Positions 29,980 through 58,362 of a stretch of 64,000 bases of DNA are shown piece after piece; positions within the stretch are counted from its first letter, which is position 1; each line of letters starts with the position of its first letter. The position numbers and the translations under genes are program-made. A model generated the notes under the pieces. It did not search any database, was not told where the DNA came from, and saw only the letters and a program-made list of their open reading frames with translations. Source of the DNA: a virus; the IMG/VR virus record IMGVR_UViG_3300021963_004264, positions 1 through 64,000 of that record. One strand, 5' to 3'.

Positions 29980-30672
29980 TTACTTAAAACCAATTTGCAT
30001 GAATCTTGTGTACGCAGGTGTTTTCATAATGCCTGCGTACAACCTTTTCTGCATTGGGTACTTGGCAAACATTTCTTCAATACTTGTGCAAGTATTAATG
30101 TGACCAATGTAGCCTTCGCTGTCGTTGGTTTGCATAGCAATTAATTGACTGCTGTCAGCAGTATCAAACCAATGTGTGTCCATGTGTTCACAACTGGTAT
30201 TAATAACAACATCGGGTGTGGTCTGAATAAGTTCACCACCAGTTTCAAATAGCATGTTACTGGTACATAATGTACTTGCATCAGCAACAACACCTTTGAA
30301 CTTCCAACTATCTTGTACATAACGTTGATTGAAACGTTCTGCTAATTCAATTGCACCAGCATCAACATCAATGCCGTATACTCGCTTAACATCAGCAATG
30401 TTAAACAAAGGCTGTACAATACTGCCTACCCAACAACCTAGCAGTGCAACTGTATACTCATGAGTGTATACCATGTTGCGGAATAGTTTTTCTAATAACC
30501 AACTCTTGCTTGCCAACTGACCTTTGCTGAATGCATCTCTAGGATAACCACCGTATATGGCTCGTTCAAAGTAACTAGGAGGCATAGCAACAAAACTGCT
30601 TTCGCTGTCAATGTATGCTTCTACTTTTGCCCAGGTATTAATGTTGATTGTATCTATTTCGCAGCCACTCAT
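29980..30672 (-). CDS. class I SAM-dependent methyltransferase-like protein
   Basis: LLGCWVG, GIDVD, VINTSCEHM. Confidence 0.72.
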   Translation of the reverse strand: MSGCEIDTININTWAKVEAYIDSESSFVAMPPSYFERAIYGGYPRDAFSKGQLASKSWLLEKLFRNMVYTHEYTVALLGCWVGSIVQPLFNIADVKRVYGIDVDAGAIELAERFNQRYVQDSWKFKGVVADASTLCTSNMLFETGGELIQTTPDVVINTSCEHMDTHWFDTADSSQLIAMQTNDSEGYIGHINTCTSIEEMFAKYPMQKRLYAGIMKTPAYTRFMQIGFK

Positions 30673-33600
30673 AATCATTTATCCTTGCTAATGCTTCTAC
30701 ATCATTGCGGTTAGCTTGTGCATATGCACGACCTTCTTCGGCACCACGCTTTGCTTCTTTGCTAAAGTCTGCGTCTTGTACAGGATGCAACCAACCTTCT
30801 AATCTTTCTCGACTATCAGCATCATCCTTTAGTGCTAACTTAACACACTCACGGAATGCGCTACGCCATGTGCTATACTCATCGCTGTTAAACTTTGTTA
30901 CACAACTCACTTCAGGCATTGCTTTGAACCTAGTACTTAGTCCTGTTGTAAAGTCTAGTCCCCAGCTTGTGGCATTGATTACTTGTTCACGATTGAATAG
31001 CTTAACACCACCGTATCCATATTCTTGCCCAGTTACTGGGTTACGGCTTGCCCAAACGTGTACTACTTCTTGGTCATATACATCGGGTATATACCCAAAA
31101 TCGAATGTATCCAAAATTTCTGCATCGGCGTCTACTACCCAAAACATCTTGCTTTTAACGCTTCTAGCAGCCTCTTTGTGTGCATTAAATATTCCTGCTA
31201 TATCTTTGACCCAGGTAGCGTTAAAACGTGCTGTAAGACGCTTATATGCGCTTGTAGCACCCTGTTCTTTGTATGATAAGAACACAATATCGTAAGGTTG
31301 ATAGGTACTACCCAATTCTTTAACATATTGGATATCCTTTAGCTTATTTAATCGGATACTATCTGTGGTTAATTGGGAATAGTCTTTTTGGGTAGGCCAT
31401 AATCGGAGACCACCATAACTATGAACCTTTTGGGTATGAGGATTCTGTCTTTGCCAAACATGTATTTTATTAATGCTCAAAATGTCTGGTAGGTAGCCTG
31501 CGTCCAATACACTTTGTTCAACACTAACATCAGGATCAATAGTCCACAGGAAAGGAACTTCCTGATTAGCAAATTCCTGTAGAGCAGTAACCAACTCTGA
31601 TTTTGTAACATCTTTTAGATGTACCACTGGCCACTGAGGACGCAGACTACCAACAGTATTTATTTGTTTTAGATTACTAAAGCTGTTGTTAGCTACATCT
31701 TTATCTGTAAGTGTGGTCGAGAATGTACCTTTAGGATACAATCTAATGTTTCTATACTTACCATCTTCGTCTGCAAAAACGTGTACGTTCTTTTCGTCCC
31801 ATTGTGTAGGATAATAATCAAACTTAAAATCGGGATGCACTCTAGTGAAAGGATCCACAACCCAATACATAGAATTCTCTACAGTACTGTCTATGTGTGT
31901 AAGTTGTTCAATAATATCGAGCTGTGGATCCAGTTTTAAAATAGGAAATTCTTTTTGTGTACATGCAGGTTCTCGAATGTACTTAGGTCTTCCTTTAGCT
32001 TGTGGTACTTTAGGACATAGCATAACGCCAGAATAATCATATTGACGACCTGTAACAGGATTTAATTTTTGCCAGACATGTGTTTTTCCTTCATCCCACG
32101 TTTCAGGAATAAAGTCAAAGTCAAAATTTTCTAGTACAGTAACGTTAGGATCTATGACCCAAAACCAGTTATTAGTAGATTTTTCTCGGCCCAATTCTTC
32201 ACTATTAAATTTTTCAAATTCTAAATCTTTAAAAGGGCTAATAAAATGTATCACAAGTTCAACATTGTTCCACGTTTTAGGAACCCAACGAATACCACCC
32301 ATGCTTTCAGGATACTTGTGTTTTAGTTGTTCACCTAAATGAAAGCTGTGTATCATATTGCGTTGAAAATCAGGTGGCACCCAAGATACTTCTCTAGCTA
32401 ATTTATATTCTTTGTCGATAAGCCAACAGTCTTGTGTTACTACTCTATAATCATTTGGATCTTCTACATAAAGAATAGGGTACTGCTTGTTTCCTGTAGG
32501 AGAAGACGAAATGTATTTTGCGTCGTCTTTATTATATTTAACAGGAACTAGTTTAGCACCGCCGCAACGATTATCGCTAACATTAGTAACACTTAAAGGA
32601 TACTTATGTTGTAATTGATCTGGTATTTTAAAAATATGAATATACTTTTGATCGTACTTGTGTGGGACATAGTTGAATACATCATTTAACTCGTGCTCAC
32701 TGTCAACAAGCCAAAACATTTTAGTTCTACTTTTTCTAGCATAAGTTTCATAATTGTTTATATCGGTTGAATAAAAAATATCATAACGAACAGGTACAAT
32801 TCCTAATTGATATTTGTGTTTAGTCATATCAAATTTCTTATGTACAAGTCGTACACCGCCACAGCGAATATCCCAAGGTTCATTTACTGATTCAGGATAA
32901 CGTTCGTCTAAATGTCCAGGTATTTTAAACACATGTATATATTCAACTTCGTGTGTCGCAGGCACATAATAGAGCTTACCGTTAAATGTAAAATCTCTGT
33001 CTACTATCCAAAACCAATCAGTTTTACTGCGTTCTGCATATTCATTATATGTTTCTACATTGAATTCGTCGCTGTCTATAAAGAATATATCATATTCTTT
33101 ATCAGCAATAGGACAAGCAGGATGTATTTTTAGTTCAGCATTTTGCCAACACTTAGGTACTAATCTTATACCACCCATCGCTTGAGGATATTTTTCTGTG
33201 AGCTGATAAGGCATACGGAAGCAGTGTATGTAATCTTGTTCGAAAGGATTAGGGACCCAGTCTAATGTACTTGTGTCGATGCTATGATCATTATCTATAA
33301 GCCAAACATAATCATCTTTAAATTTATCACGCTGTGCATAGTTGTTTACATCAGTTACATATAATACAGGATACTCTAATCCTGCATCTAGGAAGCTATG
33401 ATATTTTATTTGTGCGCTAGCCCAATTATTAGGATATAGCTTGATACCGCCTTCTCGCTCAGGATACTTATGTTCTAACTGTCCGCGTAAATGAAAGCTA
33501 TGAATAAAAGTAGGCTCAAAATTATCTGGAGCCCAGTCAATATCATTGTTTAACTTATATTCAGGATCTACACACCACACATGACTAGCATATGGATGAA

Positions 33601-33937
33601 CATCAAAATAATCTTCTGGTGTTGTTGTATATACTATATCAAATGCTTTACGGCATACAATATGATTAACTTGTTTTGTTCCGAGCGGTGTAGTGCGAGG
33701 TAATAATTTTACACCGCCATAATTGTTACTGTTCCATTTCCAAATGTGTTCATATACTTGGTCATGGTCTGGTGGTCTAAATTCAAATACTTGTGTATCA
33801 ACAACTTCAATGTTTGGTTCAACAACCCAATACATTTTTGTTTTGGATGAAATTTGTTCGTAAGATTCTACTTGCTTTGCAAAAGGCAAAACATCTTTTA
33901 GTTTTTTATTTTCACCTATGTAGAATATATCAAACAC
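30638..33937 (-). CDS. giant glycosyltransferase-like protein with ~10 tandem GT-A-like repeats
   Basis: Recurrent W(V/L)VD..., H.(W/F), GG(V/I)(K/R)L.P units; complete C-terminal domain (DIVFLSY, VVDAD, AFREC) similar to 53084. Confidence 0.75.
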   Translation of the reverse strand: MFDIFYIGENKKLKDVLPFAKQVESYEQISSKTKMYWVVEPNIEVVDTQVFEFRPPDHDQVYEHIWKWNSNNYGGVKLLPRTTPLGTKQVNHIVCRKAFDIVYTTTPEDYFDVHPYASHVWCVDPEYKLNNDIDWAPDNFEPTFIHSFHLRGQLEHKYPEREGGIKLYPNNWASAQIKYHSFLDAGLEYPVLYVTDVNNYAQRDKFKDDYVWLIDNDHSIDTSTLDWVPNPFEQDYIHCFRMPYQLTEKYPQAMGGIRLVPKCWQNAELKIHPACPIADKEYDIFFIDSDEFNVETYNEYAERSKTDWFWIVDRDFTFNGKLYYVPATHEVEYIHVFKIPGHLDERYPESVNEPWDIRCGGVRLVHKKFDMTKHKYQLGIVPVRYDIFYSTDINNYETYARKSRTKMFWLVDSEHELNDVFNYVPHKYDQKYIHIFKIPDQLQHKYPLSVTNVSDNRCGGAKLVPVKYNKDDAKYISSSPTGNKQYPILYVEDPNDYRVVTQDCWLIDKEYKLAREVSWVPPDFQRNMIHSFHLGEQLKHKYPESMGGIRWVPKTWNNVELVIHFISPFKDLEFEKFNSEELGREKSTNNWFWVIDPNVTVLENFDFDFIPETWDEGKTHVWQKLNPVTGRQYDYSGVMLCPKVPQAKGRPKYIREPACTQKEFPILKLDPQLDIIEQLTHIDSTVENSMYWVVDPFTRVHPDFKFDYYPTQWDEKNVHVFADEDGKYRNIRLYPKGTFSTTLTDKDVANNSFSNLKQINTVGSLRPQWPVVHLKDVTKSELVTALQEFANQEVPFLWTIDPDVSVEQSVLDAGYLPDILSINKIHVWQRQNPHTQKVHSYGGLRLWPTQKDYSQLTTDSIRLNKLKDIQYVKELGSTYQPYDIVFLSYKEQGATSAYKRLTARFNATWVKDIAGIFNAHKEAARSVKSKMFWVVDADAEILDTFDFGYIPDVYDQEVVHVWASRNPVTGQEYGYGGVKLFNREQVINATSWGLDFTTGLSTRFKAMPEVSCVTKFNSDEYSTWRSAFRECVKLALKDDADSRERLEGWLHPVQDADFSKEAKRGAEEGRAYAQANRNDVEALARINDYEWLRNRYNQH

Positions 33938-33938: not shown

Positions 33939-34106
33939 TTATTTTTTCTCTGTTTTTTTAATCTGTTGTGATTTTAATTTGTTTAGCGCACTAAGTACAG
34001 TTCTCCAAGGATGCTGACTACAATCTTTAGTATGCTTAGGTAAAAGTTCTTTACATTCTACGCATCGGCCTTCTAAAATAAGTTGTGCCTTATCAATCTT
34101 GTCCAT
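33939..34106 (-). CDS. 55 aa putative zinc-binding microprotein (not in ORF track)
   Basis: MDKIDKAQLILEGRCVECKELLPKHTKDCSQHPW...; Cx2C-x6-H-x3-C; fills the gap between neighbours. Confidence 0.6.
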   Translation of the reverse strand: MDKIDKAQLILEGRCVECKELLPKHTKDCSQHPWRTVLSALNKLKSQQIKKTEKK

Positions 34107-35616
34107 CACTTGTATGAACCTTTACTCCATAGTATTTTTCAAATTCTTTAGCATCGTTTTCATCGTTAACAATTGGCTGACCTTTAATATTTAAGCTAGT
34201 ATTAACTAACATAGGACAGCCTGTCTTTTTATGAAATGCCTTAAGTAATTTATAAAGTCCAGGATGCTGATTTTTGTTTACTGTTTGTACACGACTAGTG
34301 CCATCAGCATGTATAATTGCAGGAAACTCTTCTGGCTTTTTACACTTAGCAACAAATTGCATATAAGGACTTGTTAATCCGTTAACAGGCATTTCAAAAT
34401 ATTCGTCGCAATGTTCTTCTAAAATAACGGGAGCAAATGGGCGAAACTTTTGACGCTTTTTAATTGCGTTCATCTTGTTTTTAATGTCACCTCCTCGTGG
34501 ATCAGCTAGCAGACTCCGGTTCCCGAGTGCTCGAGGACCATACTCAGCTCGCCCATTTGCTATCCCAAAGATCTCACCACGCTCTAATGATTGTAGTGCT
34601 TTCTTTACAGGGTAGGCACCAGGGATATTAAACCCTAGATATGGACCCTGCCATTCTACTCTTTTAGAGGTTAAGTTATAGTAATGTAGTGCGGCAGCGC
34701 CTAAGCTACTGCCAGCATCACCGGGGTTAGGCATAATATGTACATTATCATATAACTTGAATAAGTGTCTGTTTGCAACACAGTTGAGAGCGACTCCGCC
34801 CATAAAAACTAAATTTTTGCTGCCGGTTATTTGTTGTGCCTTTAGTGCATATTGAAAAATTCGTTGTTCTACAATAGATTGAGCACTGGCAGCAATATCG
34901 TAATCAGTTTGATAGTGACCTGATTCGTCTTTGTCGCCTGTACGAATAATAAAGTCTTTCTCAAAGCCACGTTGTAGATTAACTTTCATTGCTATAGGAT
35001 TAGAAGATTTTTTAAAAAGTTCTTCTTCCATATATTTTTTAAACATAGGTTCGCCGTATGCCGACATACCCATAAGAATATATTCATCTTCGTTGGGTTT
35101 TAATCCTACAAGATGTGTTGCCGCACTGTAAAATAGACCTAAGCTGCTCGGAAACCATGTGCTATGTTTCTTTTTTAGTTTACCTGATTCCCAATGCCAA
35201 ATACTTGATGTATCAAACTCGCCGATAGCATCTAGAACAATAACAGCACATTCGTTAAAGTCGCTGGTAAGCACGCCGGCTGCGGCATGCGTTTCGTGAT
35301 GCATGTATTGTTTAGAGGGAATGTTACTTAGTTCAGGATAAAAGTTTGCAACCCAGCCCTGCTGAGTAGGTTCTTTAACTGCACTCCAGTTACCTGCTCG
35401 CATTAAACGAAGTTGTTTTAATGTTGCATTTTCATGATAAACAACGTAGTCGGGCTTGCCATATGTAAGAGCTTCAGCCACAAGTTTACGATTTAAGAAT
35501 CTATCGTTTTTAATTTTGCTGTAACGTTCTGCGTGTGCGGCAAAAACTATCTTACCGTCATCTACTACAGTAACGCTAGCATCATGAAACATACTGCTGA
35601 TGCCAAGAATTCTCAT
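34093..35616 (-). CDS. O-carbamoyltransferase, NodU/CmcH family
   Basis: HDAS, ER.SKIK, HHETHAA, DAIGE, MGMSAYG, GGVALNC, GDAG, GPRALGNRS, RPFAP, NTSLN. Confidence 0.95.
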   Translation of the reverse strand: MRILGISSMFHDASVTVVDDGKIVFAAHAERYSKIKNDRFLNRKLVAEALTYGKPDYVVYHENATLKQLRLMRAGNWSAVKEPTQQGWVANFYPELSNIPSKQYMHHETHAAAGVLTSDFNECAVIVLDAIGEFDTSSIWHWESGKLKKKHSTWFPSSLGLFYSAATHLVGLKPNEDEYILMGMSAYGEPMFKKYMEEELFKKSSNPIAMKVNLQRGFEKDFIIRTGDKDESGHYQTDYDIAASAQSIVEQRIFQYALKAQQITGSKNLVFMGGVALNCVANRHLFKLYDNVHIMPNPGDAGSSLGAAALHYYNLTSKRVEWQGPYLGFNIPGAYPVKKALQSLERGEIFGIANGRAEYGPRALGNRSLLADPRGGDIKNKMNAIKKRQKFRPFAPVILEEHCDEYFEMPVNGLTSPYMQFVAKCKKPEEFPAIIHADGTSRVQTVNKNQHPGLYKLLKAFHKKTGCPMLVNTSLNIKGQPIVNDENDAKEFEKYYGVKVHTSDGQD

Positions 35617-35619: not shown

Positions 35620-35763
35620 TTACCTGTAAATGAAAGGATCCATTTTGCGAAGTTCTTCTAACTTCTTTTTTAACTGCTCCTCTTCTTCAGCAGTTAGCTC
35701 TAACTCAGGAGCGTCTTTTTCGTTTTGCTCTTTTTTATTTTCTTGATCTAATGGCTTGTTCAT
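35620..35763 (-). CDS. small protein ending LRKMDPFIYR
   Basis: 47 aa; GAGGA RBS; immediately upstream of the carbamoyltransferase. Confidence 0.6.
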   Translation of the reverse strand: MNKPLDQENKKEQNEKDAPELELTAEEEEQLKKKLEELRKMDPFIYR

Positions 35764-36376
35764 ATAATTCCTCTGCGATTGAATTGTGTACCTGCTCATT
35801 ACCATGATGTAGTTCGCTGTAATGATCAGGCATCAGTTCTTCGTAATCCTCAAATATAGCATTGAACGGCTTATAATACTTATCGTTGAATAATTCATTA
35901 AATGCTGGATGCTGGACATCTTCATAAAATTTATTCCATGCATTAAAAAACAAATAGTCTATACCCTTGTTTTCAAGGAACGATTTTAATGCAAGTTGAT
36001 TGATCAGCGTTCTTTCTAGTCCTAATGTGTTCCAATTACAACAATAAAGACTCATAAAATCAAATAATTTTTGAAGCTGTTCTTTATTGTTAATGTTATC
36101 AGGTACTTGTCTACCCAGTCCAAAATGATGCCATTCTTCGTTAAAAATAACTTCTTGTCTTTCGTATGTAGTCCAGCCAATAACAACAAAATCAACAGGA
36201 TTATTTAAACAATAGTTAATTGTTGTTCTTAGAATACGGTCGTTGCCGCCGCCGGGCATAGCTAAGTTAACAGATTTCATGCCTAGTTTTTCTGCAAGCG
36301 GTTGAACAAAACTTATAGACGATTCAGATCCTGCAACATGACTACAACCGTTAGCAAGCAATACTTTATTTGTCAT
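35735..36376 (-). CDS. SGNH/GDSL-like protein (GCS variant)
   Basis: ANGCSH, NLAMPGGGNDRI, IGWT..R, LHHG. Confidence 0.65.
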   Translation of the reverse strand: MTNKVLLANGCSHVAGSESSISFVQPLAEKLGMKSVNLAMPGGGNDRILRTTINYCLNNPVDFVVIGWTTYERQEVIFNEEWHHFGLGRQVPDNINNKEQLQKLFDFMSLYCCNWNTLGLERTLINQLALKSFLENKGIDYLFFNAWNKFYEDVQHPAFNELFNDKYYKPFNAIFEDYEELMPDHYSELHHGNEQVHNSIAEELYEQAIRSRK

Positions 36377-37664
36377 ACATTAAATTCCACAGCTCAGGAA
36401 TGGCATTGCTCATACTTTCATTACGCTGTCGATCAAGCAGGCTGGTATACTTCTTAAAAATAGCTAACTGTTTTTCCCAATCATCGTGACGATTTTCTTT
36501 AAGTGCTTTAATAAGAGCATTGATAGCTTGTAGATTATTTTCTCGTTTAACTAAAATTTTACTTGTAGGAATCCATGCTTCTAATCGTTCTACTGCTACT
36601 GCACGGACACTATCAGGTAAATTTCTAAAATCTAAACTGCGAGGATAGTCACAAATTAAAAATGTTAAATGTATTTCTCTGTTATACTCTTGCTCTAATG
36701 TTTCACAATAGTCTAGTAATTTGGTTATGTCTAAGATGTTATATATTTGAATAACAGGACTAAACAGTAGGCTACCTACTACTTTACTAGCACAGTAGCG
36801 ACGAACGTTTTCGTCTGTTTGTGTCCAGTGGCTAGCACCACGAATATATTCGTTTAATTCTCCATATGCATCTACACTAAAGCACATCAACACTTTCTTA
36901 AATTGCTCTACAAGATTAATAAAGCGAGGCTTAATATTAGTCATATTGCTATTAAAAACTAATTCAATATTTTTAGCAATACCTAGTTCAACGCATTTTT
37001 CTAAGATCCAGTATGTACGTTCAATTAGCGTAGGTTCGCCTCCAGTGAAATATAACTTATTAACACCCGGTAGCCATTCTTCGACCTGACGCAAAAATTC
37101 AGGATCATCTTGCCAAGGAGTAATGTGATCAGCAAATTGACCCCAAGTAAAATGATCTTTAATAAACTGTCCCGACATAGGATCAATTTCTTCGATACGT
37201 TTGTATTCTTTTTGTATCTGACTACTGTTTTGTGGTTGACACATACGGCACTTTAGGTTACATAAGTTACCTAAACGGAAGTCCAAATACATTGGTGCTT
37301 CCTCTACTACATAGTCGTTGTCAATACTGCGCTCAATGCGTTGCATAATGCTTTCGCCGTGTCCACTGTATTCAAACCAGTCTCGAATATAGTTAGTGCG
37401 ATAGCTAGGGAAGCCCATCTTTTCTAAATCGTAGCAATGTTCGCAACCCTTAACTGTTTCGCCTTCAATCATTTGTTTGCGTATCTTACGCATGTGATTA
37501 TTGTTCCACACACTTTCAATACGATCACCTTTGTTAAGGTCGAACATAGTACCGTCGTCGTTTTTAAAGTTGTCGCGAGCAACACAGCACCAGCTTACTG
37601 TTCCAGTAGGCTGAGTCATTACATGTATCCATGGATAAGGACAAAATGTTTTACTATATTCCAT
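36366..37664 (-). CDS. radical SAM protein with N-terminal twitch/SPASM-like domain
   Basis: FCPYPW.H..WCC..CEHC; CNLKCRMC; GGEP; YIR. Confidence 0.9.
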   Translation of the reverse strand: MEYSKTFCPYPWIHVMTQPTGTVSWCCVARDNFKNDDGTMFDLNKGDRIESVWNNNHMRKIRKQMIEGETVKGCEHCYDLEKMGFPSYRTNYIRDWFEYSGHGESIMQRIERSIDNDYVVEEAPMYLDFRLGNLCNLKCRMCQPQNSSQIQKEYKRIEEIDPMSGQFIKDHFTWGQFADHITPWQDDPEFLRQVEEWLPGVNKLYFTGGEPTLIERTYWILEKCVELGIAKNIELVFNSNMTNIKPRFINLVEQFKKVLMCFSVDAYGELNEYIRGASHWTQTDENVRRYCASKVVGSLLFSPVIQIYNILDITKLLDYCETLEQEYNREIHLTFLICDYPRSLDFRNLPDSVRAVAVERLEAWIPTSKILVKRENNLQAINALIKALKENRHDDWEKQLAIFKKYTSLLDRQRNESMSNAIPELWNLMYDK

Positions 37665-38860
37665 TAAAATTCCTCTGGTGCATTACCATGCTCTTTTAGG
37701 ATTTTATAAAATTCAGGGAAAGTGTCCTTAAACTTTTCGTCCCTGTATTGATCACTAAACATTGTATGCTTATAGAAAATGTGCATTTTTGATGTATCAT
37801 AATCTACATCAGTGCAATATTTAACTGAGCTAACAATATCTGGATGTGTATTGTTAGCAAATTTTTCAAATACTTTCATCTTAACACGCTTAGGCAATAC
37901 TTTACAACTTAAATGTTCTGGTGTATACACATGATTAAAGTATATAGGTGTATCAGGAAACTCTTTATCTCGCCAAGCAATAATTTCATCTAGATAGAAT
38001 ATGTTGAATATACTAACAGTATAACATATGTCAGGAAATAGTACAGGAATTTTTTGATCTAACAACTTTCTTAAGTTATCTCTAACCTGATCCCACTTAG
38101 TAGGATTTCTTATGTATTCAAAATGAGAACCAATGCCGTCAATACTAAAACTTACCATAACACGTTTAAAGTGTGGCCACAATTCAACACCTCGTTCAGG
38201 ATAAATGCTGCCGTTCGTATTATAGTTTAGTGTAATGTCTTTACTGCGGCCAGTATCAACTAAGTTTTGTAAAATGTCATAGTGGTCGGTAATTAGTAAT
38301 GGCTCGCCACCATAAAATTCTAGTACTTCTAAGTCAGTACTAATCTCTTTAAAATCCTCCCAGAAAGCAGGATTGCGCTCTGGCCAACGGCCTGCTACTC
38401 GCATCTGATCCCAAAAACGATTGCCTTCGCCGTCGCGTTTCTTTTCTTCAGGTACCCACAAGCTACTAGCAAAGCTGTTGCAAATTCTACATCTATTGTT
38501 ACATATATTTCCTAGCTTTAGATCCATAGCAATAGGCTTTTGTAACTCTTTAGCTTCCTGTGCATTTTTTAATGCATCTGGAAAGTCTTTTAGCGCACGT
38601 TGACGCTTACTATGCACGCCAGCGTCTTCAGCAGTCCAACAACTATAACAAGAGGCTGGCTTTTCACCATTTAAGAAATCCTGCCTTAACTTATCAAGCC
38701 ACTCACTGTTCCATCCGTCGCTTAGTGTATTCTCTGCAAGATTTAGTTTCTTACCATCAGGGCCTTTAATCAATTCGTCCATTTGACAGCAAACACTCAT
38801 GTGTCCATCAGTACGTGCTTCAATGTTTACGAAAGGCATTGGACAAAAATGTTTGCTCAT
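37664..38860 (-). CDS. radical SAM protein with N-terminal twitch/SPASM-like domain
   Basis: FCPMPF..VCC..CYSC; CNNRCRIC; GGEP; NTNG. Confidence 0.9.
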   Translation of the reverse strand: MSKHFCPMPFVNIEARTDGHMSVCCQMDELIKGPDGKKLNLAENTLSDGWNSEWLDKLRQDFLNGEKPASCYSCWTAEDAGVHSKRQRALKDFPDALKNAQEAKELQKPIAMDLKLGNICNNRCRICNSFASSLWVPEEKKRDGEGNRFWDQMRVAGRWPERNPAFWEDFKEISTDLEVLEFYGGEPLLITDHYDILQNLVDTGRSKDITLNYNTNGSIYPERGVELWPHFKRVMVSFSIDGIGSHFEYIRNPTKWDQVRDNLRKLLDQKIPVLFPDICYTVSIFNIFYLDEIIAWRDKEFPDTPIYFNHVYTPEHLSCKVLPKRVKMKVFEKFANNTHPDIVSSVKYCTDVDYDTSKMHIFYKHTMFSDQYRDEKFKDTFPEFYKILKEHGNAPEEF

Positions 38861-46290: not shown

Positions 46291-46299
46291 TATTTATCA
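46291..46299 (-). promoter_or_regulatory. T4-type late promoter TGATAAATA, followed by a 5' stem-loop GTACAGTT-AA-AACTGTAC
   Basis: Motif in the intergenic gap upstream of the dehydrogenase. Confidence 0.65.
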
Positions 46300-51878: not shown

Positions 51879-52530
51879 AAATTTTAGTATAGTCCCAACC
51901 TTGATCCATAAATTTACTGTGTTGTTTCCAACGCATAATAACTCTATGCATATGTTCCCCGCCGGCTACCGACCAAATGTCGTTATTATTAAAGCCGTCA
52001 TTTAATAAATGGTCACTGATTAGTTTGGCATATTTTTGCTTTTTTTCTTGTGTCATATCACTTATACATGCGCCTGCAACTATTAAGCCTTTATCTTTTC
52101 CGCCTATTGTAAAAATAAGCTGTTGTTCAGAACTTCTTAATAATCTATATAGTATACAATCAGGAAAGTCTTTTTCGTAAGCGATAGTACTTGTAGAAAA
52201 AATAAACGTGCCTTTCATTTTATTTTCTAAGTATTTTAACAACGTTAGTTTAAACCAAAAACCTATTCTCCAAGAGTTTATAAAATTATCATACGTGTCT
52301 TTTTGTTCTATCAAAGGTCTAGTATAATCAAAATCGGCACCCTGAATATTTGCATTAAAAAATATTCTATCTGGAAGCTCTTTATTTTTTATAGATTCTA
52401 TGAATTCTTCTGGTTTACTATAATCAACATTATGTCGGCCGAATTTAATAACTTCGTGACCGGCGGCTTCTAAATCGGCAATAATGTATTTTGCATACTC
52501 TGAAGATGCACCAAAAAACCAATATTTCAT
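51871..52530 (-). CDS. degenerate short-chain dehydrogenase/reductase-like protein
   Basis: FGASS..A..L...GHEV..GR, FNA, FSTS, Y; catalytic K absent. Confidence 0.55.
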   Translation of the reverse strand: MKYWFFGASSEYAKYIIADLEAAGHEVIKFGRHNVDYSKPEEFIESIKNKELPDRIFFNANIQGADFDYTRPLIEQKDTYDNFINSWRIGFWFKLTLLKYLENKMKGTFIFSTSTIAYEKDFPDCILYRLLRSSEQQLIFTIGGKDKGLIVAGACISDMTQEKKQKYAKLISDHLLNDGFNNNDIWSVAGGEHMHRVIMRWKQHSKFMDQGWDYTKIYD

Positions 52531-53084
52531 TTTTTCTCTTCTTTGGTTCGGTCAAGCATCATTGAAATAGTAAATCTATCTACTGCGTTGTGATCTAGTA
52601 GTCCTACACTATGAAAACTTTTATCCAAAACTTTAAATAATAAAAGTTGATTAGGTTTCCCACCTATGTCAATCGGATCGTTGCCATACGTATCTGAATG
52701 AAATGTTGTACCACAAGCGTTGTTTAAATATAAAACACCTCTAATCGGCACATGTATCCAATGTGTATCATTATGAATATGTAATTTATTTCCAGCTGGA
52801 AGTAAGTTAACAGAAGACTTGTTTTCTATGCAGTTTTCTTGCCAAACCAGATTAATAGCATTTAACATTTCACTTTCATATTTTAATAATACTTCCATTA
52901 GTGGGTGGCCTGATAAAGACATAAAGCCTTCTAATTTATCATTAGTTACAAAATAATCCAATAAGTATTTTTTATGTGCTGCATCAAATAATTGAGGATC
53001 AAAAAAGTTGTCAATGAGTATGTACTCTGTGCCATGACAGACTTTTATATTTTCTCGACATATTTGATCAATGTTTAACAGCAT
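52527..53084 (-). CDS. 2OG-Fe(II) oxygenase
   Basis: IDNFF, HND, VLYLN, GT.F, FHSV, RFT. Confidence 0.75.
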   Translation of the reverse strand: MLLNIDQICRENIKVCHGTEYILIDNFFDPQLFDAAHKKYLLDYFVTNDKLEGFMSLSGHPLMEVLLKYESEMLNAINLVWQENCIENKSSVNLLPAGNKLHIHNDTHWIHVPIRGVLYLNNACGTTFHSDTYGNDPIDIGGKPNQLLLFKVLDKSFHSVGLLDHNAVDRFTISMMLDRTKEEKK

Positions 53085-54079
53085 TATAACAAGCCTTTTT
53101 CCAGCAGTTCTTGGATCTGTTTTTCTCGAATCATTACACCCCAACGGCGTGGATTTACATAAGTTTTTTTAAAGAACTCACACATTTTTGGATTAGGATC
53201 AAACAACATCATTTTGTTGATATCTTCATTTAGTTCTTGTCCTAGAGTACATATTGCATTATACAACATTTCTTTGTTCCACGCAACCTTTGTATAGCGG
53301 CAAACTGTGTCGCCTGCAAACTGTGGAGCGATTTCTTTATTAAAATAATCTTTAAACCACTCATAGTCTGAAATTTGATTAGTGTCCCAATCTGTTAATA
53401 CAGTTTTTTGACAGCCTAACCTAGCGCCGTAGATTGCCCACAACCCATTTTCAACATCGCTACCGATATTGCACCACGTTTGTAATCTGTTATAATTTTG
53501 CCACCAAATTTTATCTGCAAACTCATCTGCACGTACTTTTCGTCCTTGGTCTAGACTCATCTTTACGCCTTCACGGAAGCCTGCACGAAAAGCCTGGAAC
53601 GGACTGGCTGTTTGATGTACTTCACTAAATGTGTCGTTGAGCTGAATATAGTTTAACTTCCAGCAGAACTCCATGCCTTCGCCATCGCCTGCTGACTCGT
53701 GTGTTTGCATCTGTAGTGCATACTCTTTGGGCCAACACTTAAGACCACCGTTGCCATATACTAATCCGTTTAGTAGGTTCTTAGCGTTCCAGCTAAAGAT
53801 GCTTTCGCTAATGTTGTTGCCGTCATGGTCTGTATCGGGTACATCTAGCACCTGTTCAAAGAAATCATCCATTACGATATTATCACCGTCTACAGTAATA
53901 AAACGTTCAGTTTCACTTTGTGCGGCAGCGGCTTTGTGCGCGGCATCGAACCCTTTAACACCGTGAACTCGTTTTGCCCAAGGTACCTTGTTAAGCAAGT
54001 CTGCCCAATTTTCTTCCGCATTGGGTTCATCGTAAGAGATATAAAAGATGTCTAGTTCAGTAACATCAATTTTGGCCAT
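53084..54079 (-). CDS. GT-A-like glycosyltransferase
   Basis: DIFYISYDE, VHGVKGFDAAH, TVDGD (DxD), YGNGGLK, GFREGVK. Confidence 0.7.
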   Translation of the reverse strand: MAKIDVTELDIFYISYDEPNAEENWADLLNKVPWAKRVHGVKGFDAAHKAAAAQSETERFITVDGDNIVMDDFFEQVLDVPDTDHDGNNISESIFSWNAKNLLNGLVYGNGGLKCWPKEYALQMQTHESAGDGEGMEFCWKLNYIQLNDTFSEVHQTASPFQAFRAGFREGVKMSLDQGRKVRADEFADKIWWQNYNRLQTWCNIGSDVENGLWAIYGARLGCQKTVLTDWDTNQISDYEWFKDYFNKEIAPQFAGDTVCRYTKVAWNKEMLYNAICTLGQELNEDINKMMLFDPNPKMCEFFKKTYVNPRRWGVMIREKQIQELLEKGLL

Positions 54080-54115
54080 ATGTGTGTCCTATATTAAGTA
54101 CACACATATTTATCA
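54078..54115 (-). promoter_or_regulatory. late promoter TGATAAATA overlapping a 10 bp RBS/AUG-occluding hairpin
   Basis: ATATGTGTGT/ACACACATAT inverted repeat at 54078-54087 and 54100-54109. Confidence 0.65.
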
Positions 54116-54161: not shown

Positions 54162-54818
54162 CTAAACTTCTCTTGAATATTTTTCGAATGCTTTAACAGT
54201 ATAAATGCTACATTCTAATGGGATGTCTTTGATTTTAATGGTTAGCAGTTTATTAGTTAATAGTTGACGTAACGACACATATTCACTGTGTAACATTATG
54301 TGTGGATCGTTTTTTGCTGTAAAATAAAATTTTAAAATTTTATGTCCATTTGCGGTTGCAGTAAAAGGATCTATATCTTTATATTTTTGTAAAATATTAT
54401 CGTTAAGCTCAATGATAAATTGATTTTTTGTTAATGTACATTTACAGTCAAAATCATCGTTATGGTCAATAAGCATAAGCGAATTATTTTCAGCTGATAC
54501 TATAGTACTCTCTAAAGGCCTAGATTCTATACTATAAAGATTGTCAACTAGCAAATCCTTTTTTACAAAGAAAAGATTCCAATTTTTACCTTCGAGAATT
54601 TGTAGTTGGTTATCGTCGAATTCTCGAAACTGCCACTCTGGGTTTGCTTCTATTTCTTCTTTAGTAATAGAAACAATTGTTCCATCATTTAAAAAATATA
54701 CTTTTGGCTTTTTTGAAAGTTCTTGCTTCATCAAGGCAGCAAAACTTCCGCCAGCAGATTCTTTTGACGCTAAAAACCTTAATCTTCGTTCTTCAGCTTC
54801 TTTAGATACCATAATCAT
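54162..54818 (-). CDS. hypothetical protein
   Basis: 218 aa, FYFTAKNDPH. Confidence 0.7.
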   Translation of the reverse strand: MIMVSKEAEERRLRFLASKESAGGSFAALMKQELSKKPKVYFLNDGTIVSITKEEIEANPEWQFREFDDNQLQILEGKNWNLFFVKKDLLVDNLYSIESRPLESTIVSAENNSLMLIDHNDDFDCKCTLTKNQFIIELNDNILQKYKDIDPFTATANGHKILKFYFTAKNDPHIMLHSEYVSLRQLLTNKLLTIKIKDIPLECSIYTVKAFEKYSREV

Positions 54819-55665
54819 TTTCCATTTGTTTAATCATTTTTAGTGTTAGCCAGTCCTTTTCAACATAATGAAATGGCAACAACTGTTGGAAGTTTCCTAC
54901 TTTGAAATCAGTATAAGTGTTATAGTAAGTAGGTATAGTTTCAGTCCAGTTATGGCTTATTATCGATGTTGGTACGTTTTGTACATGGCTTTTCATATGT
55001 ACAAAGGTAGGAACGGCGTCAATGTTTTCTCTAGTACATTCATGTTCAATGCCCAATAGTTGCATAGCTAGTGCAAATGCAACATCGCCACTCAGCCTGT
55101 CTGGTTTACCTTCGGGCATATACTTGTAAAAGAAACGCTGCCAATGCTGGAACACAATTTCTGTCATAGCAAATAATTCACTAGCCAGTTCGCTTTTCTT
55201 AAAATAAAAGAAAGCTGTATACACATTAGGTAAATTATTTTTTACAAAATATTCTCTATAATAATTACTGCTAACAATTTCACCGCGAAAAGTACGTACT
55301 TTGGTAGTAGCCCACACATCACGTTGTGATAATATATCCCACCAATGGCTGACATCTGTTGGAAATAACATATCAGTATCTAATACAACTGTTTCATCGT
55401 ATGGCGTCATATGTAGATATTTCCATTTATTGTTAATTTTCCAATCTTCGCCTTGTGCATCATCTTGCCAAGGAATGTCAACAATATAGTCAAATACCTG
55501 TTTGTGTTTGTTGGTGATTTTTTTCTTTGTTTCGGCATCAACACAAACGGTTAAATTATTAACACTGCTTTGTGTTAGTTTTAAATTTAACGCAAGAGCA
55601 TATGCCTGTTGAAGATAATCAACAGATGCATTATTTTGTGCTATTACAATATAGCCCTTACTCAT
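54802..55665 (-). CDS. GT-A (GT8-like) glycosyltransferase
   Basis: TPYDETVVLDTDML (DxD), YFKKS, D.AFALA, FVHMK. Confidence 0.75.
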   Translation of the reverse strand: MSKGYIVIAQNNASVDYLQQAYALALNLKLTQSSVNNLTVCVDAETKKKITNKHKQVFDYIVDIPWQDDAQGEDWKINNKWKYLHMTPYDETVVLDTDMLFPTDVSHWWDILSQRDVWATTKVRTFRGEIVSSNYYREYFVKNNLPNVYTAFFYFKKSELASELFAMTEIVFQHWQRFFYKYMPEGKPDRLSGDVAFALAMQLLGIEHECTRENIDAVPTFVHMKSHVQNVPTSIISHNWTETIPTYYNTYTDFKVGNFQQLLPFHYVEKDWLTLKMIKQMENDYGI

Positions 55666-56477
55666 TAAACACCTTCTTTAAATTCTGGACAGTAGTAGTC
55701 AACGAATCTGTTTTTAATATGTGGCAATATTATTTCTTTAGTAAAATATTCATGCATAATTCGTGTAGGATGATTATCAGGCCACTTTATTGTTTCTCCG
55801 TGTTCTTCAATTTTCACGTCAATTTGAGGGAAATCATTATCAGTCCAGTGTGTGTAGCACCATTCGTGCATACTGCCTACTGGTAACCAATGGCTCCAAT
55901 CAATAAGATCTCGCATCCAAATGACATTTGGATTTTTATAAAAATCTGTATCTTTAAAAACTTCTGATGTAAATGTAGTCATAAAATATTTAATACCTGC
56001 CAATTTTAAGTACGATTGTACCCAAAGAATTTTTTCATAGGTATTAACTCTATGATTAACAAAATCATGCAAATGCGAATAATAAATTTTAGATGTCTTT
56101 TCTTTCCAATGAGGATTCATAATTAACCAGCCGCCGGGATCGTCGTCGACATATGTTGTAGGATTAATAAACATACTATCTAAACTTTTAACATCATCAC
56201 TAAGCTGTCCTTTAATATTAGAAATATATGTGTCGTGCCTATCTGGTCCGCTCCACATAATACCTACTAGAATTTCGTCTGGCTTTGCACCTTGATCTAA
56301 TAATTGCTGTACAGCAAATATTGCTTTTCTAGCAATTAAACTATTACCTTGACTTGATAAACCCATGTGAACACAGTTAACATCGTACGATGCTTCTAAA
56401 TGTATTGGCCAGGTATAACGTGTGATAGCATCGCTAAAACTACAACCCGATGTAACTATATGTTTAAAGTTTTTCAT
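55665..56477 (-). CDS. SGNH/GDSL-like protein (GCS variant)
   Basis: SGCSFS, SQGN, MWSGPDR, DNHP. Confidence 0.65.
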   Translation of the reverse strand: MKNFKHIVTSGCSFSDAITRYTWPIHLEASYDVNCVHMGLSSQGNSLIARKAIFAVQQLLDQGAKPDEILVGIMWSGPDRHDTYISNIKGQLSDDVKSLDSMFINPTTYVDDDPGGWLIMNPHWKEKTSKIYYSHLHDFVNHRVNTYEKILWVQSYLKLAGIKYFMTTFTSEVFKDTDFYKNPNVIWMRDLIDWSHWLPVGSMHEWCYTHWTDNDFPQIDVKIEEHGETIKWPDNHPTRIMHEYFTKEIILPHIKNRFVDYYCPEFKEGV

Positions 56478-56479: not shown

Positions 56480-57130
56480 TTACTTTACACCACTAGATAA
56501 CACAATTTTACAAATATGTTCTAGGCGTTCAATGTGTTCCATAGCACGCCATGGACTAGTATCTATTGCTACAACCCCATGACCTTTAATGCCAACAATG
56601 TCATATGCAATGTTACCCTCACTGTCAAGCTGTAAATTTTCGTGACACTTTACAGCTAGTTCTTCGCTGATAGGTGGAACATCTGGCACATTAGGTGCTA
56701 CTCGTGTATAGCGTCCTAGTTCAGGAAAGTCTTTCACTAACTCAGCTAGTTCTATTCCGGCGTGCATGGCTGCTACACAATAAGTCGGATGCAGATGCAT
56801 AACTACTCGCACGTCATTTTTGTGCTGACCCATTTCTTTTTGTAAGCCGAAGTGTAGAGGAATTTCGCCGCTGGGCTTTAGATTAGCACTAATGTCTGTA
56901 TAAAACTCTTCTACCCAACCGTATTGTACGAAAGGAGGTGCGGCATATGGCACACGATTAATTTGAATCTTTTTAAACTGATCAGGTTGCATTGTCTGCT
57001 TACGCACACCACTAGGCGTAATATAAAAATGATTACGGTCGTGGTGACGAATACTTACATTGCCGTCACGACTGGTAATCCAGTTGCGCTTATACGCTTC
57101 TACTAATGTATCACAGATTGTTTCTAACAT
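56480..57130 (-). CDS. class II aldolase/adducin family protein
   Basis: DGNVS, ITPSG, PSGE..H, HLHP, GHG. Confidence 0.9.
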   Translation of the reverse strand: MLETICDTLVEAYKRNWITSRDGNVSIRHHDRNHFYITPSGVRKQTMQPDQFKKIQINRVPYAAPPFVQYGWVEEFYTDISANLKPSGEIPLHFGLQKEMGQHKNDVRVVMHLHPTYCVAAMHAGIELAELVKDFPELGRYTRVAPNVPDVPPISEELAVKCHENLQLDSEGNIAYDIVGIKGHGVVAIDTSPWRAMEHIERLEHICKIVLSSGVK

Positions 57131-58019
57131 GATTGATTAATTCCTCACTTATTCTATTTATTGCCCATTTATTCATAACGTGTAAATCAACATTACTCCA
57201 TTTAGTAAGCATAAAGTCGCCCGGGCTACGTGGCTTTTCTAAATACATTATCAGAGTATGATCGTTAACTGCACTGTGTATATCGTCAGTGTCAAATGTT
57301 TTATACAGTGTGGTAGGAAGTTGTGGTATTCCTCTATCTTTAAATCCGCTCATCATATGAGCCGCTATACTGAAACTGTAATCATTTCTGTATAAACTGC
57401 CTTTCCATTTGTAAACGTCTTGATAATATTGTTTATTATTTTTAACATGTTTAACACAATTAAAAAAACTTTCTGTTAAAGGCGTTTTACGAAAGTACAC
57501 AACAGTAGCCCAATACATTGTAATGCCAAAATCGTTTAATCTATTAAGTGTAAGATCTTTACGTTCATACATGATGTCCTGGTAACGCCAATTCATCATT
57601 AGTTCTTCGTTGTGTCCCCAGCACTGATTAAGTGTATCACTTAGTATTAGGTAGTCTACATCTAGTAATATAGTTTCTTCATACGGACTTAGATCATATG
57701 CATCACAACGATTAACATTATAAAAACTTAATGGCTTTGCAGTATGGCTGGTGTCTTTAAATGTTCGTATGTTTTGTTCTTTAAACTTTTTATCTTTTTC
57801 AACAACAATAAGATTGTTTATTGCATTATCTATAACGTCTTTACCCAAAGATTTTTCAGCATATTCTAAACTAGCAGGATCGGTAACTACTGTAATATTC
57901 TTAATACCTAAATGCTTTTGTATTAAAAGACTGTTTACAACAGCTAGTTTAAAATAATCAATTTCTGCGTTGTTGTGGGCAAACATAATGATGCCACGAT
58001 CATTATTTGCCTTCATCAT
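57111..58019 (-). CDS. GT-A (GT8-like) glycosyltransferase
   Basis: SPYEETILLDVDY (DxD), WATVVYFRK, RNDYSFSIA, HVMNK; paralog of 54802. Confidence 0.75.
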   Translation of the reverse strand: MMKANNDRGIIMFAHNNAEIDYFKLAVVNSLLIQKHLGIKNITVVTDPASLEYAEKSLGKDVIDNAINNLIVVEKDKKFKEQNIRTFKDTSHTAKPLSFYNVNRCDAYDLSPYEETILLDVDYLILSDTLNQCWGHNEELMMNWRYQDIMYERKDLTLNRLNDFGITMYWATVVYFRKTPLTESFFNCVKHVKNNKQYYQDVYKWKGSLYRNDYSFSIAAHMMSGFKDRGIPQLPTTLYKTFDTDDIHSAVNDHTLIMYLEKPRSPGDFMLTKWSNVDLHVMNKWAINRISEELINHVRNNL

Positions 58020-58362
58020 TGAGATCTAATACCTTATGTACTTTGCGTGACTTACGTAGTTTTTCGTACTCTGCATAATAGTCGTTGGTTACTTCAAAGT
58101 AACGACTGAGTACTTCATCATAAAAACTTTCAATATCAACTTTAATAGGATTTTGGTATATGTCTAAAAGAACTGCTTCAGTTTGCTTTTCTTCTAGCAA
58201 TAATTTACAAAAATTAAGTAGCGAACGATCAATTGTAAACGTGCCACCATTAATGCTGTAACTTAATAAACTTTGAGTTTTGGCTCGTAGTGCGGCTTGC
58301 TGATTATTAAGTGTAACTCGATAATTAGCAAATTCAAGTGCGTCAGTTAGTCTAGTGCTCAT
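58003..58362 (-). CDS. conserved phage hypothetical protein
   Basis: 119 aa, NGGTF.I, LLDI..NPI; TAAATA-N5-ATG. Confidence 0.75.
   Translation of the reverse strand: MSTRLTDALEFANYRVTLNNQQAALRAKTQSLLSYSINGGTFTIDRSLLNFCKLLLEEKQTEAVLLDIYQNPIKVDIESFYDEVLSRYFEVTNDYYAEYEKLRKSRKVHKVLDLNDEGK

Follow-up and report, generated by a model that had tools for sequence, protein, structure and literature searches.

A phage gene block of eight radical SAM enzymes and several glycosyltransferase-like proteins, a candidate pathway for building and tailoring a glycan

Introduction

The first 64 kb (positions 1 to 64,000, hereafter the window) of the 73,954-bp viral contig IMGVR_UViG_3300021963_004264 carry, at 29980-58362, a block of 25 open reading frames (ORFs), all on the minus strand and mostly abutting or overlapping, which lies together with three overlooked small ORFs directly 3′ of virion genes. 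This block, in which eight radical S-adenosylmethionine (SAM) enzymes are interleaved with glycosyltransferase (GT)-like and sugar-modifying proteins, probably encodes a sugar-transfer and tailoring pathway of some kind. A more specific reading, i.e., a cytoplasmic pathway that builds and tailors a glycan on virion proteins, is the one favoured here, with a confidence that falls just short of even. An initial annotation of the same DNA had described a large GT-like and sugar-tailoring pathway beside the tail genes; this description stood up to hidden Markov model, profile and fold tests, and the virion glycan product and late expression that it also put forward are kept below as proposals. Genes of the block are designated by their lower coordinate in the window.

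The eight radical SAM enzymes

All eight radical SAM proteins are full-model members of the NCBIfam family NF033640 (N_Twi_rSAM), covering model positions 1-398 with 298-402 bits against a curated cut-off of 170 bits. Their genes lie on the minus strand at 50343..51878 (323 bits), 48656..50332 (313 bits), 46318..47712 (301 bits), 42494..43831 (298 bits), 41253..42497 (355 bits), 38857..40071 (402 bits), 37664..38860 (358 bits) and 36366..37664 (364 bits). Each protein keeps the CxxxCxxC and GGEP motifs and four N-terminal cysteines, i.e., the catalytic and auxiliary-cluster cysteines, and residues C13, C32, C73, C76, C128, C132, C135 and G188-P191 are invariant in the whole set. The count of eight in the initial annotation is thereby borne out, with every member above the family cut-off and with intact motifs. 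Pfam places a SPASM/twitch domain N-terminal to Radical_SAM in six of them. Weak NCBIfam side-matches to peptide maturases were also observed, and all eight fall far below the cut-offs of MftC, BtrN and similar NCBIfam models.

The eight paralogues share 19-33% pairwise identity. Genes 48656 and 50343 (31% identical) form a distinct subtype pair within the set and, together with 46318, belong to the conserved core described below; 50343 is 34% identical to ORF349 of the Ralstonia phage RsoM2USA. Orthologues of 48656 range from 47 to 98% identity across the clade, those of 46318 from 63 to 91%, and those of 38857 from 75 to 93% in 16 loci. Because each gene has orthologues 65-95% identical in related contigs, as against only 19-33% between paralogues, these comparisons indicate that the eight genes represent eight old and separately maintained functions. 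No clean pattern was found in the co-variation of particular radical SAM paralogues with particular sugar genes across relatives, and a literature search returned no paper on the reaction or substrate of NF033640 or on this gene module.

The glycosyltransferase-like proteins

Pfam gave no signal for the GT-like proteins and PHROGs was equally blind, with no function for nine of the ten unknown block proteins; alignments were built from related loci for this reason. The most conserved gene of the block is 53084 (53084..54079), a core gene whose family counts at least 8000 database clusters at 90% identity and which is 44% identical to RsoM2USA ORF350. Its product is predicted to be a GT-A-fold nucleotide-sugar transferase-like protein with a C-terminal helical domain, based on an AlphaFold2 (AF2) model with a pLDDT of 86.6, a fold search and the motif D64-G-D66, which is invariant in the alignment of relatives. 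Foldseek against PDB returned WrtF, SunS and PBCV-1 A64R at the top (best E 5e-4, probability 0.96-1.0); the GT-A structural matches comprise WrtF, SunS/ThuS, A64R, B4GALNT1, STIV A197 and Mimivirus R699, and VIA gave Z scores of 8-10 over residues 2-160. The nucleotidyltransferases MobA and IspD match the model almost as well as the GT-A enzymes do. Against BFVD, two long uncharacterised phage proteins were followed by mostly viral GTs, including the Che8 glycosyltransferase. Homologue searches with 53084 and 40073 retrieved only unannotated environmental proteins without Pfam domains.

The second GT-A-like protein is encoded by 30638 (30638..33937), a 1099-aa protein in which a repeat alignment resolves ten tandem 53084-type GT-A-like modules. 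Modules 1-9 are without the nucleotide-binding segment; it is present in the tenth, as are a DAD motif and the C-terminal helical domain. Over residues 883-1099 the protein shares 25% identity with 53084 (E 3e-9), which makes its C-terminus a paralogue of that protein. Homologues of 30638 are 997-1358 aa long with a module number that varies among relatives, the best BFVD matches of this protein type are phage proteins of 804 and 1076 aa (E 4e-15), and RsoM2USA ORF348 is a single-module homologue (38% identity). The fold of 53084 and the paralogy of 30638 uphold the two GT-A-like proteins that had been annotated.

Two core genes, 57111 (57111..58019) and 54802 (54802..55665; phrog_1903), encode paralogous GT8-like proteins, which are 35% and 40% identical to RsoM2USA ORF353 and ORF352, respectively; 54802 is carried by more than 92 related viral contigs. 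The single-family profiles A1, A2 and A6 found nothing significant among PDB sequences, and only the merged GT8 profile (A4, 54802 with 57111) matched. Of its 20 matches, 19 are glycogenin-1/2, with E values of 0.002-0.05 and limited to the N-terminal 110 residues, and glycogenin-1/2 accounts for all matches with E < 0.1. The motif D96-x-D98 follows a hydrophobic strand, is invariant in 25 sequences and aligns with the DAD motif of glycogenin, so that profile and motif together lend some support to the GT8-like label that both proteins had in the initial annotation. Pfam Glyco_transf_8 showed no match to either protein at E values up to 5; the nearest named ESM Atlas clusters of 54802 are Nucleotid_trans/GT8 with a score of 0.95, which serves as a lead only.

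Two further GT-like proteins had been proposed, and they fared differently. The AF2 model of 40073 (40073..41275; pLDDT 89.5) adopts a two-Rossmann-domain, GT-B-like fold, for which Foldseek listed glycogen synthase, TarM and OtsA at the top (probability 0.97-0.99). VIA gave Z scores of 9-11.5 over 250-290 aligned residues, all 50 of the top matches listed being GT-B glycosyltransferases, among them EXTL3, the T4 beta- and alpha-glucosyltransferases and alpha-1,3-fucosyltransferases; E294-K295 is invariant. The alpha-1,3-fucosyltransferases have the highest identity to 40073 (13-16%), but their Z scores are tied with those of other GT-B families. In a GT10 test of 40073 and 43824, Pfam Glyco_transf_10 showed no match and the Atlas lead reached only 0.80. 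The 379-aa product of 43824 (43824..44963), a possible second GT-B-like protein, is a weak local relative of the 40073 C-terminus (BLASTP E 1.5e-4); it has no family match in Pfam, PHROG and NCBIfam scans and is rare among relatives. Fold modelling, the check that had been suggested for the GT-like proteins, returned a GT-A fold for 53084 and a GT-B fold for 40073.

Sugar-tailoring enzymes and the absence of membrane proteins

Four sugar-enzyme families named in the initial annotation were recovered by Pfam. The NodU/CmcH/TobZ-type carbamoyltransferase 34093 (34093..35616) matches Carbam_trans_N with 144.6 bits (E 7e-42) and Carbam_trans_C with 186.7 bits (E 3e-55), well above the cut-offs of 24 and 27, and reaches 149 bits on the NodU equivalog model, whose cut-off is 1000. 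The nucleoside diphosphate (NDP)-sugar 6-dehydrogenase 44963 (44963..46246) is confirmed at family level by the UDPG/MGDP central and N domains (E 1e-17 and 9e-15; 64 and 55 bits, both above their cut-offs), with 147.9 bits on TIGR03026 (cut-off 189.8) and no C-terminal domain reported by Pfam. Gene 47923 (47923..48663) encodes a 246-aa NeuB-like protein, i.e., a phosphoenolpyruvate-condensing TIM barrel, with 53 bits on the Pfam NeuB domain (E 3.5e-14; cut-off 22), 38.7 bits on NeuB_NnaB (cut-off 400), 22.8 bits on PseI (cut-off 340) and no match to the SAF domain. The class II aldolase/epimerase-family protein 56480 (56480..57130; Pfam Aldolase_II E 7e-28), a variable accessory found only in the closest relatives, lies below every NCBIfam equivalog cut-off.

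A small ORF of 47 aa at 35623..35763 (59 aa if started at 35799), on the minus strand, had been overlooked in front of the carbamoyltransferase gene, to which it is translationally coupled. It ends 3 nt before the carbamoyltransferase start, and in many loci its stop overlaps the carbamoyltransferase ATG. The ORF is conserved in 18 loci (14 close ones and L103, L105, L107 and L111), in all of which the C-terminus ...LKKKLEELRK(R/M)DPF(I/V)Y(R/K) is invariant, and its variable columns are distributed over the codon positions as 12/6/22, a third-position bias. This peptide may be a substrate, carrier or subunit.

For the remaining proteins, the earlier labels hold in part or not at all. Genes 55665 (55665..56477; E 1.6e-9, above cut-off), a variable accessory that is patchy among relatives, and 35735 (35735..36376; E 6e-9) both belong to Pfam DUF6071, while their former label, SGNH-like, is a reading of motifs only. 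The last gene of the block, 29980 (29980..30678), is a core gene 32% identical to RsoM2USA ORF347, and its 232-aa product is a possible class I methyltransferase, given weak matches to Pfam Methyltransf_11/12/25 (E 0.014-0.05) and to plantazolicin methyltransferases in a profile search of PDB (E 0.024). Likewise, the 219-aa protein 51871 (51871..52530) may be Rossmann/short-chain dehydrogenase/reductase (SDR)-like: it has no Pfam match, and its profile reached GDP-fucose synthase at E 0.02 and SDRs at E 0.13-0.14 in a PDB search that was polluted by designer-PPR artefacts. The 2-oxoglutarate (2OG)-Fe oxygenase label of 52527 (52527..53144), which went back to an HxD...H pattern read by eye, is not supported, as this 205-aa protein has no match in Pfam, PHROG or NCBIfam; it is present in only three related loci. 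The fast-evolving 218-aa protein 54162 (54162..54818), with homologues of 25-63% identity in 35 loci, also has no match in these three libraries. The first gene, 58003 (58003..58362), encodes a 119-aa helical protein of the conserved core (32-91% identity in 78 related loci; RsoM2USA ORF354, 32%) with only a weak PHROG match.

None of the 25 block proteins has a transmembrane-grade segment, the highest 19-residue Kyte-Doolittle mean in any of them being 1.62. In keeping with the absence of a hydropathy peak above this value, no flippase, polymerase, initiating polyprenyl-phosphate transferase or transporter family was detected among them. The block is without the membrane proteins that a Wzx/Wzy- or ABC-dependent surface polysaccharide locus requires.

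A conserved core and a mosaic interior

The same gene order recurs in 96 related loci on more than 90 IMG/VR contigs (up to 340 kb long), of which 16 were collected with a radical SAM query and 80 with 54802. Three groups of genes can be told apart in them. Genes 58003, 57111, 54802 and 53084 and the radical SAM genes 50343, 48656 and 46318 are conserved clade-wide, whereas the aldolase gene, one DUF6071 gene, 54162, 52527, 51871, 43824 and 40073 are patchy. The third group is replaced by distant alleles even where the phage flanks are about 90% identical; between such phages 40073 is 29%, 37664 is 46% and 30638 is 53% identical, and 55665 and 52527 are absent. In surface-glycan loci, interior genes are likewise replaced or lost between close relatives.

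In RsoM2USA, ORF354-347 directly follow the structural genes ORF356, 359 and 361, which were confirmed by mass spectrometry, and encode in this order homologues of 58003, 57111 and 54802, an unrelated ORF, a homologue of 53084, one N_Twi radical SAM enzyme, a 53084/30638-like protein and a homologue of 29980. The seven homologues (31-44% identity) stand in the same order as in the block, with one radical SAM gene instead of eight and a single-module instead of a ten-module protein. All are annotated as hypothetical, and this core is without the carbamoyltransferase, dehydrogenase, NeuB-like, GT-B-like and DUF6071 genes. Because ORF354-347 reproduce both ends of the block in the same order, the two ends appear to be an ancestral core of 7-8 genes and the interior 20 kb an expansion, which, as judged from gene content, is a mosaic, fast-changing one common to more than 90 aquatic phage contigs.

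The N_Twi family outside this phage clade

In Vibrio phage K566, four N_Twi copies lie among hypothetical genes, and none of the block's GT or carbamoyltransferase genes accompanies them. In a survey of cellular genomes, with one genome per prokaryote species, 137 stretches encode N_Twi relatives, mostly in Bdellovibrionota, and 80 loci were kept. These predatory bacteria carry tandem N_Twi arrays of 2-9 copies on megabase contigs or chromosomes without the phage GT genes (e.g., L137, L115, L119 and L162). A NodU-type carbamoyltransferase is present in 17 of the 80 kept loci; other neighbours of the Bdellovibrionota arrays are a class V aminotransferase, an Asp/Asn hydroxylase and proteins of unknown function, and Pfam assigns no family to most neighbours of the cellular arrays. 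In one Bdellovibrionia chromosome an Asp/Asn beta-hydroxylase adjoins a nine-copy array. Since arrays without GT genes exist in K566 and Bdellovibrionota, the link of N_Twi enzymes to sugars appears to be specific to the present phage clade rather than intrinsic to the family.

Loci with the GT core also turned up in 'bacterial' data, on short contigs or in metagenome-assembled genomes (MAGs) that also hold phage DNA. A cellular origin of these loci was considered and rejected, as all three tested MAGs with GT-bearing loci contain a phage-like DNA polymerase 56% identical to that of the present phage, on the same contig as the block in a Haliscomenobacter MAG (L105/L107) and on other contigs in a Legionellales MAG (L111) and a Rickettsiales MAG (L147). 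With this phage-type polymerase in the same MAGs, the loci fit binned phage contigs. A Gammaproteobacteria MAG (L176) carries homologues of the tail genes. Jumbo-phage contigs binned in bacterial MAGs could mislead the inference of hosts or of gene origins.

Promoter-like motifs and transcription

T4-type late promoters had been annotated at 58368, 54107 and 46291. Two of these sites, at 54107..54114 and 46291..46298 on the minus strand, share the promoter-like motif GATAAATA; a leader hairpin stands behind the former and reaches as far as the 53084 start codon, and a hairpin also accompanies the latter, before the dehydrogenase gene 44963. Both lie within a longer shared motif, TGATAAATATGT, which is found at 54114 (-), 46298 (-), 19329 (+) and 22301 (+). 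The third site, 58368, reads CTTAAATA, a poor match that lies 5 nt before an ATG and directly after a strong terminator hairpin. The exact T4 late-promoter octamer, TATAAATA, occurs once in the window, at 59870 before the 58807 gene, and is strongly under-represented (1 copy vs. 9.3 +/- 3.0 expected from dinucleotide shuffles). The genes behind the plus-strand TGATAAATATGT sites are of unknown function or encode an HNH endonuclease or a 2OG oxygenase; PHROGs showed none of the plus-strand genes behind the GATAAATA motif to be structural, and the motif is not tied to late genes. Since the motif also precedes non-structural plus-strand genes, late timing of the block is plausible only by analogy with T4.

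The combination of TGATAAATATGT with a leader hairpin recurs at 54075-54114 (-), 19329-19360 (+) and 46255-46298 (-), the hairpin reading ATGTGTGT...ACACACAT at 54114 and 19329. The Shine-Dalgarno sequence lies in or beside the loop, and the hairpin ends at the start codon.

Freshwater metatranscriptome libraries yielded contigs with 99-100% identical fragments of several block genes, a weak sign that the block is transcribed. Such contigs carry no timing, level or strand, and the parts of the block that they leave uncovered are uninformative.

Proposed pathway and its acceptor

The basic job would be carried out by the core, i.e., the small helical protein, the two GT8-like proteins, the GT-A-like protein, one N_Twi radical SAM enzyme, the second GT-A-like protein and the methyltransferase-like protein. 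In the aquatic clade exchangeable genes amounting to about 20 kb would have been added to this core, namely seven further radical SAM paralogues, one or two GT-B-like proteins, the NDP-sugar dehydrogenase, the NeuB-like synthase, the aldolase/epimerase-type enzyme, the two DUF6071 proteins and the carbamoyltransferase with its coupled small peptide. The enzymes of the block would make activated sugars, which presumably active GTs would then transfer, and the transferred sugars would be edited by radical chemistry, by carbamoylation and probably by methylation or acylation. The acceptor would be one or more virion (tail or fibre) proteins, glycosylated in the infected cell before or during assembly.

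Several lines of evidence converge on this acceptor. With neither transmembrane segments nor export families in the block, the pathway should be cytoplasmic and should need a cytoplasmic acceptor; as all block proteins are soluble and the block follows virion genes, a virion protein is the most likely one. A virion acceptor is further favoured by the fixed position behind virion genes in phages of unrelated hosts, by the O-antigen-like mosaicism, and by the fold of 53084, which is like that of the viral protein-glycosylating GT-A enzymes PBCV-1 A64R and Che8.

A number of observations weigh against this reading. All sugar enzymes lie below NCBIfam equivalog cut-offs and are firm at the superfamily level only, too coarse a level to name the sugars. 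The 40073 model is equally close to T4 DNA glucosyltransferases and to fucosyltransferases, and the small conserved peptide, by its coupling to the carbamoyltransferase, gives a hint of a product borne on a peptide. Vibrio phage K566 and Bdellovibrionota chromosomes have N_Twi arrays that are not accompanied by GT genes. In addition, the block is set apart from the tail genes by a strong terminator, and non-structural plus-strand genes share the promoter-like motif; both observations speak against taking co-regulation of the block with virion genes for granted.

A bolder version of the virion-glycan reading, put forward as a tentative suggestion, is that each of the eight N_Twi enzymes carries out a distinct and undescribed radical transformation of a GT-built sugar chain, e.g., C-methylation, epimerisation, deoxygenation, or the formation of C-C or ether bonds, with the chain attached to virion proteins or, alternatively, to the C-terminal end of the carbamoyltransferase-coupled peptide.

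Alternative explanations

In mycofactocin, a peptide-derived core receives its sugars and methyl groups after it has been made; aminoglycoside clusters bring together GT-B enzymes, a twitch radical SAM enzyme (BtrN) and a carbamoyltransferase (TobZ). By comparison, the block could make a small molecule or a peptide-derived glycoconjugate in the infected cell rather than decorate the virion, with the radical SAM enzymes and the carbamoyltransferase acting on a ribosomal peptide or on a cyclitol/sugar scaffold to which the GTs add sugars. The invariant C-terminal DPF(I/V)Y(R/K) of the conserved small ORF and its coupling to the carbamoyltransferase would suit such a product, as would the common role of SPASM/twitch enzymes in peptide maturation, the maturase side-matches mentioned above, and the recurrence of radical SAM and carbamoyltransferase pairs without GTs in Bdellovibrionota. 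However, Pfam and NCBIfam scans found no RRE/PqqD-like domain, peptidase or aminotransferase in the block, and tblastn did not detect the peptide in cellular loci. The RsoM2USA core also has GTs and a radical SAM enzyme without the peptide or a carbamoyltransferase, and a diffusible metabolite would leave the fixed position behind the tail genes unexplained. This explanation is regarded as unlikely.

The pathway could instead alter, during infection, the envelope of the host or its pool of sugar nucleotides, leading to serotype conversion or superinfection exclusion, which is judged rather improbable. The mosaic gene content does resemble that of O-antigen loci, a lipoprotein moron adjoins the block, and analogous pelagimyophage cassettes have been read as acting on the O-chain (PMC7029224). 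Yet 28 kb of DNA contain no membrane protein, flippase, polymerase, polyprenyl-phosphate transferase or transporter, and a lytic jumbo phage gains little from a late change of the host surface. The core is moreover conserved in phages of very different hosts, including Ralstonia, and an envelope target would call for a host-independent acceptor. The host surface had been offered as a second option in the initial annotation, and this option is weakened because no block protein has a transmembrane-grade hydrophobic segment.

A third explanation, in which we place even less trust, takes virion or other proteins themselves as the substrates of the radical SAM enzymes (cross-links, epimerisation or hydroxyl or methyl chemistry), which would be mere neighbours of a separate and simpler glycosylation module. 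N_Twi arrays without GT genes elsewhere, the Asp/Asn beta-hydroxylase beside the nine-copy Bdellovibrionia array, and a twitch/SPASM class rich in protein and peptide modifiers are all consistent with this. On the other hand, the radical SAM genes are interleaved with sugar enzymes in the present clade, and the single radical SAM gene of RsoM2USA sits between two GT-A-like genes.

Finally, the block could glycosylate or hypermodify phage DNA. Pathways of DNA hypermodification in phages can draw on radical SAM enzymes and on carbamoyl or sugar chemistry, and the T4 beta- and alpha-glucosyltransferases align with 40073 no less well than any other GT-B enzyme does (Z 10-11.4). This explanation is nevertheless very improbable, as the GT-B matches tie within one Z unit and do not discriminate, the block lies in the virion rather than the replication module, Pfam, PHROG and NCBIfam scans of it returned no kinase, DpdA/TGT, deoxynucleoside monophosphate hydroxymethylase or nuclease-type genes, and a separate plus-strand cluster by the DNA polymerase already has GFO/IDH/MocA, alcohol dehydrogenase (ADH), GalE-like epimerase and phosphoribosyltransferase genes.

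Relation to known systems

The closest published analogue of the block is the host recognition cluster of pelagimyophages, in which radical SAM cassettes with GT8 and UDP-glucose dehydrogenase genes were described beside tail fibres and interpreted as O-chain modification (Zaragoza-Solas et al. 2020, PMC7029224). Like the block, this cluster is hypervariable, adjoins tail-fibre genes and combines GT8, UDP-glucose 6-dehydrogenase and radical SAM cassettes, and close relatives differ by the gain or loss of cassettes. Unlike the pelagimyophages, the present phage has a polymerase closest to those of Phosso, Atu_ph07, XaC1, CBB and Rak2-like jumbo phages. In a T4-like environmental genome, 12 radical SAM genes had been noted before (Nishimura et al. 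2017, PMC5332604). In these two studies the module, its conserved core and the radical SAM family were not dissected, and host O-chain modification was favoured. The statement in the initial annotation that no characterised phage pathway has this many radical SAM enzymes is softened by the 12-gene genome and the cassettes; it stands insofar as those systems are themselves uncharacterised.

A64R of chlorovirus PBCV-1 acts in capsid glycosylation. In mycobacteriophages, virion glycosylation of the Che8 type is attributed to Freeman et al. 2023 where it is cited in PMC12801897. In both systems, virus-encoded soluble GT-A enzymes glycosylate structural proteins in the cytoplasm. At fold level, the model of 53084 resembles both the Che8 glycosyltransferase (BFVD probability 1.00, E 4e-4) and A64R (PDB 2p6w, probability 1.00), and at 10-14% identity the fold is all they have in common. 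The Che8 and PBCV-1 systems use one to few GTs, without radical SAM, carbamoyltransferase or NeuB-like proteins, and their glycans have been demonstrated, whereas the block is known from its genes alone. The mycofactocin and aminoglycoside pathways likewise bring twitch/SPASM radical SAM enzymes together with GTs and tailoring enzymes, and the block has a small conserved peptide besides; in contrast to those pathways, its radical SAM proteins are no members of the MftC or BtrN families by sequence and carry the twitch domain N-terminally. The island is of the phage glycosylation/host-recognition type, with an unprecedented enzymatic depth.

Neighbouring genes and other features of the locus

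As initially annotated, the co-oriented block directly follows baseplate/tail genes. Upstream on the same strand are four virion-type genes, which encode proteins of 224 aa (phrog_11259), 344 aa, 521 aa and 3844 aa. The 521-aa protein has tail-fibre PHROG matches, and its homologue in PA5oct carries the annotation baseplate wedge/tail pin or virion structural protein; the 3844-aa ORF, at 62156-73690 (-), matches phrog_10938, 'virion structural protein', with E 2e-75. The counterpart of the last in RsoM2USA is the structural protein ORF361 (>288 kDa). The edge of the window cuts this gene (62156-73690 of the contig; 2156-13690 of locus L183).

The DNA polymerase gene at 387-3086 is closest (42-46%) to those of Phosso, Atu_ph07, XaC1, CBB and Rak2-like phages, and related contigs reach 250-340 kb; on the strength of the polymerase relatives and these sizes, the phage is classed as a probable T4-superfamily jumbo myophage. 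Near-identical DNA is found in marine, estuary and lake metagenomes (18 studies). A megablast search with 20 kb of the block against GenBank phages gave no match.

With a 13-bp stem and a T run behind it, the terminator-like hairpin at 58382..58411 (-) sets the boundary at which the tail/lipoprotein genes upstream end and the block begins; a near-identical hairpin lies at 58691-58722. Bracketed by these two hairpins, between the tail genes and the block, a gene at 58448-58645 (-) encodes a 65-aa lipoprotein with a signal peptide, an LGLTAC lipobox and an Ala/Pro-rich mature part. It is kept in seven close relatives and looks like a moron.

Besides the ORF coupled to the carbamoyltransferase and the lipoprotein gene, a further small ORF had been overlooked. 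This 73-aa ORF at 47709..47930 (-) fills a 210-nt 'gap', is 55-88% identical in nine related loci and has an LDLHG...IICGNS motif, which suggests an Smr-like protein. Between the carbamoyltransferase and the 1099-aa gene, a 55-aa ORF with a CxxC...C..H pattern lies at 33939-34106 (-); as it is found in only one relative (45% identity), it may be no gene.

On the plus strand at 3916-12166, beside the DNA polymerase, are genes for GFO/IDH/MocA and Zn-ADH-type oxidoreductases, a Bax1-I membrane protein, a GalE-like epimerase and a phosphoribosyltransferase. This cluster is a separate sugar/nucleotide pathway.

Implications

Since the conserved core is present in the cultured Ralstonia phage RsoM2USA, the question of what the pathway makes can be tested directly at the bench. 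If the virion-glycan reading is correct, abundant aquatic jumbo phages invest about 8% of a genome of about 350 kb in sugar chemistry, much of which would fall to the N_Twi family, and phage virion glycosylation would extend from one or two transferases to a pathway on the scale of natural-product biosynthesis. The function of NF033640, which occurs in large arrays in predatory Bdellovibrionota as well, would also become approachable for the first time. If, as suggested more tentatively, each N_Twi enzyme performs its own transformation of the sugar chain, aquatic jumbo phages would make a hyper-edited glycan that cells have no equivalent of, and carbohydrate chemistry would provide the first function for a large radical SAM family that has so far gone unstudied.

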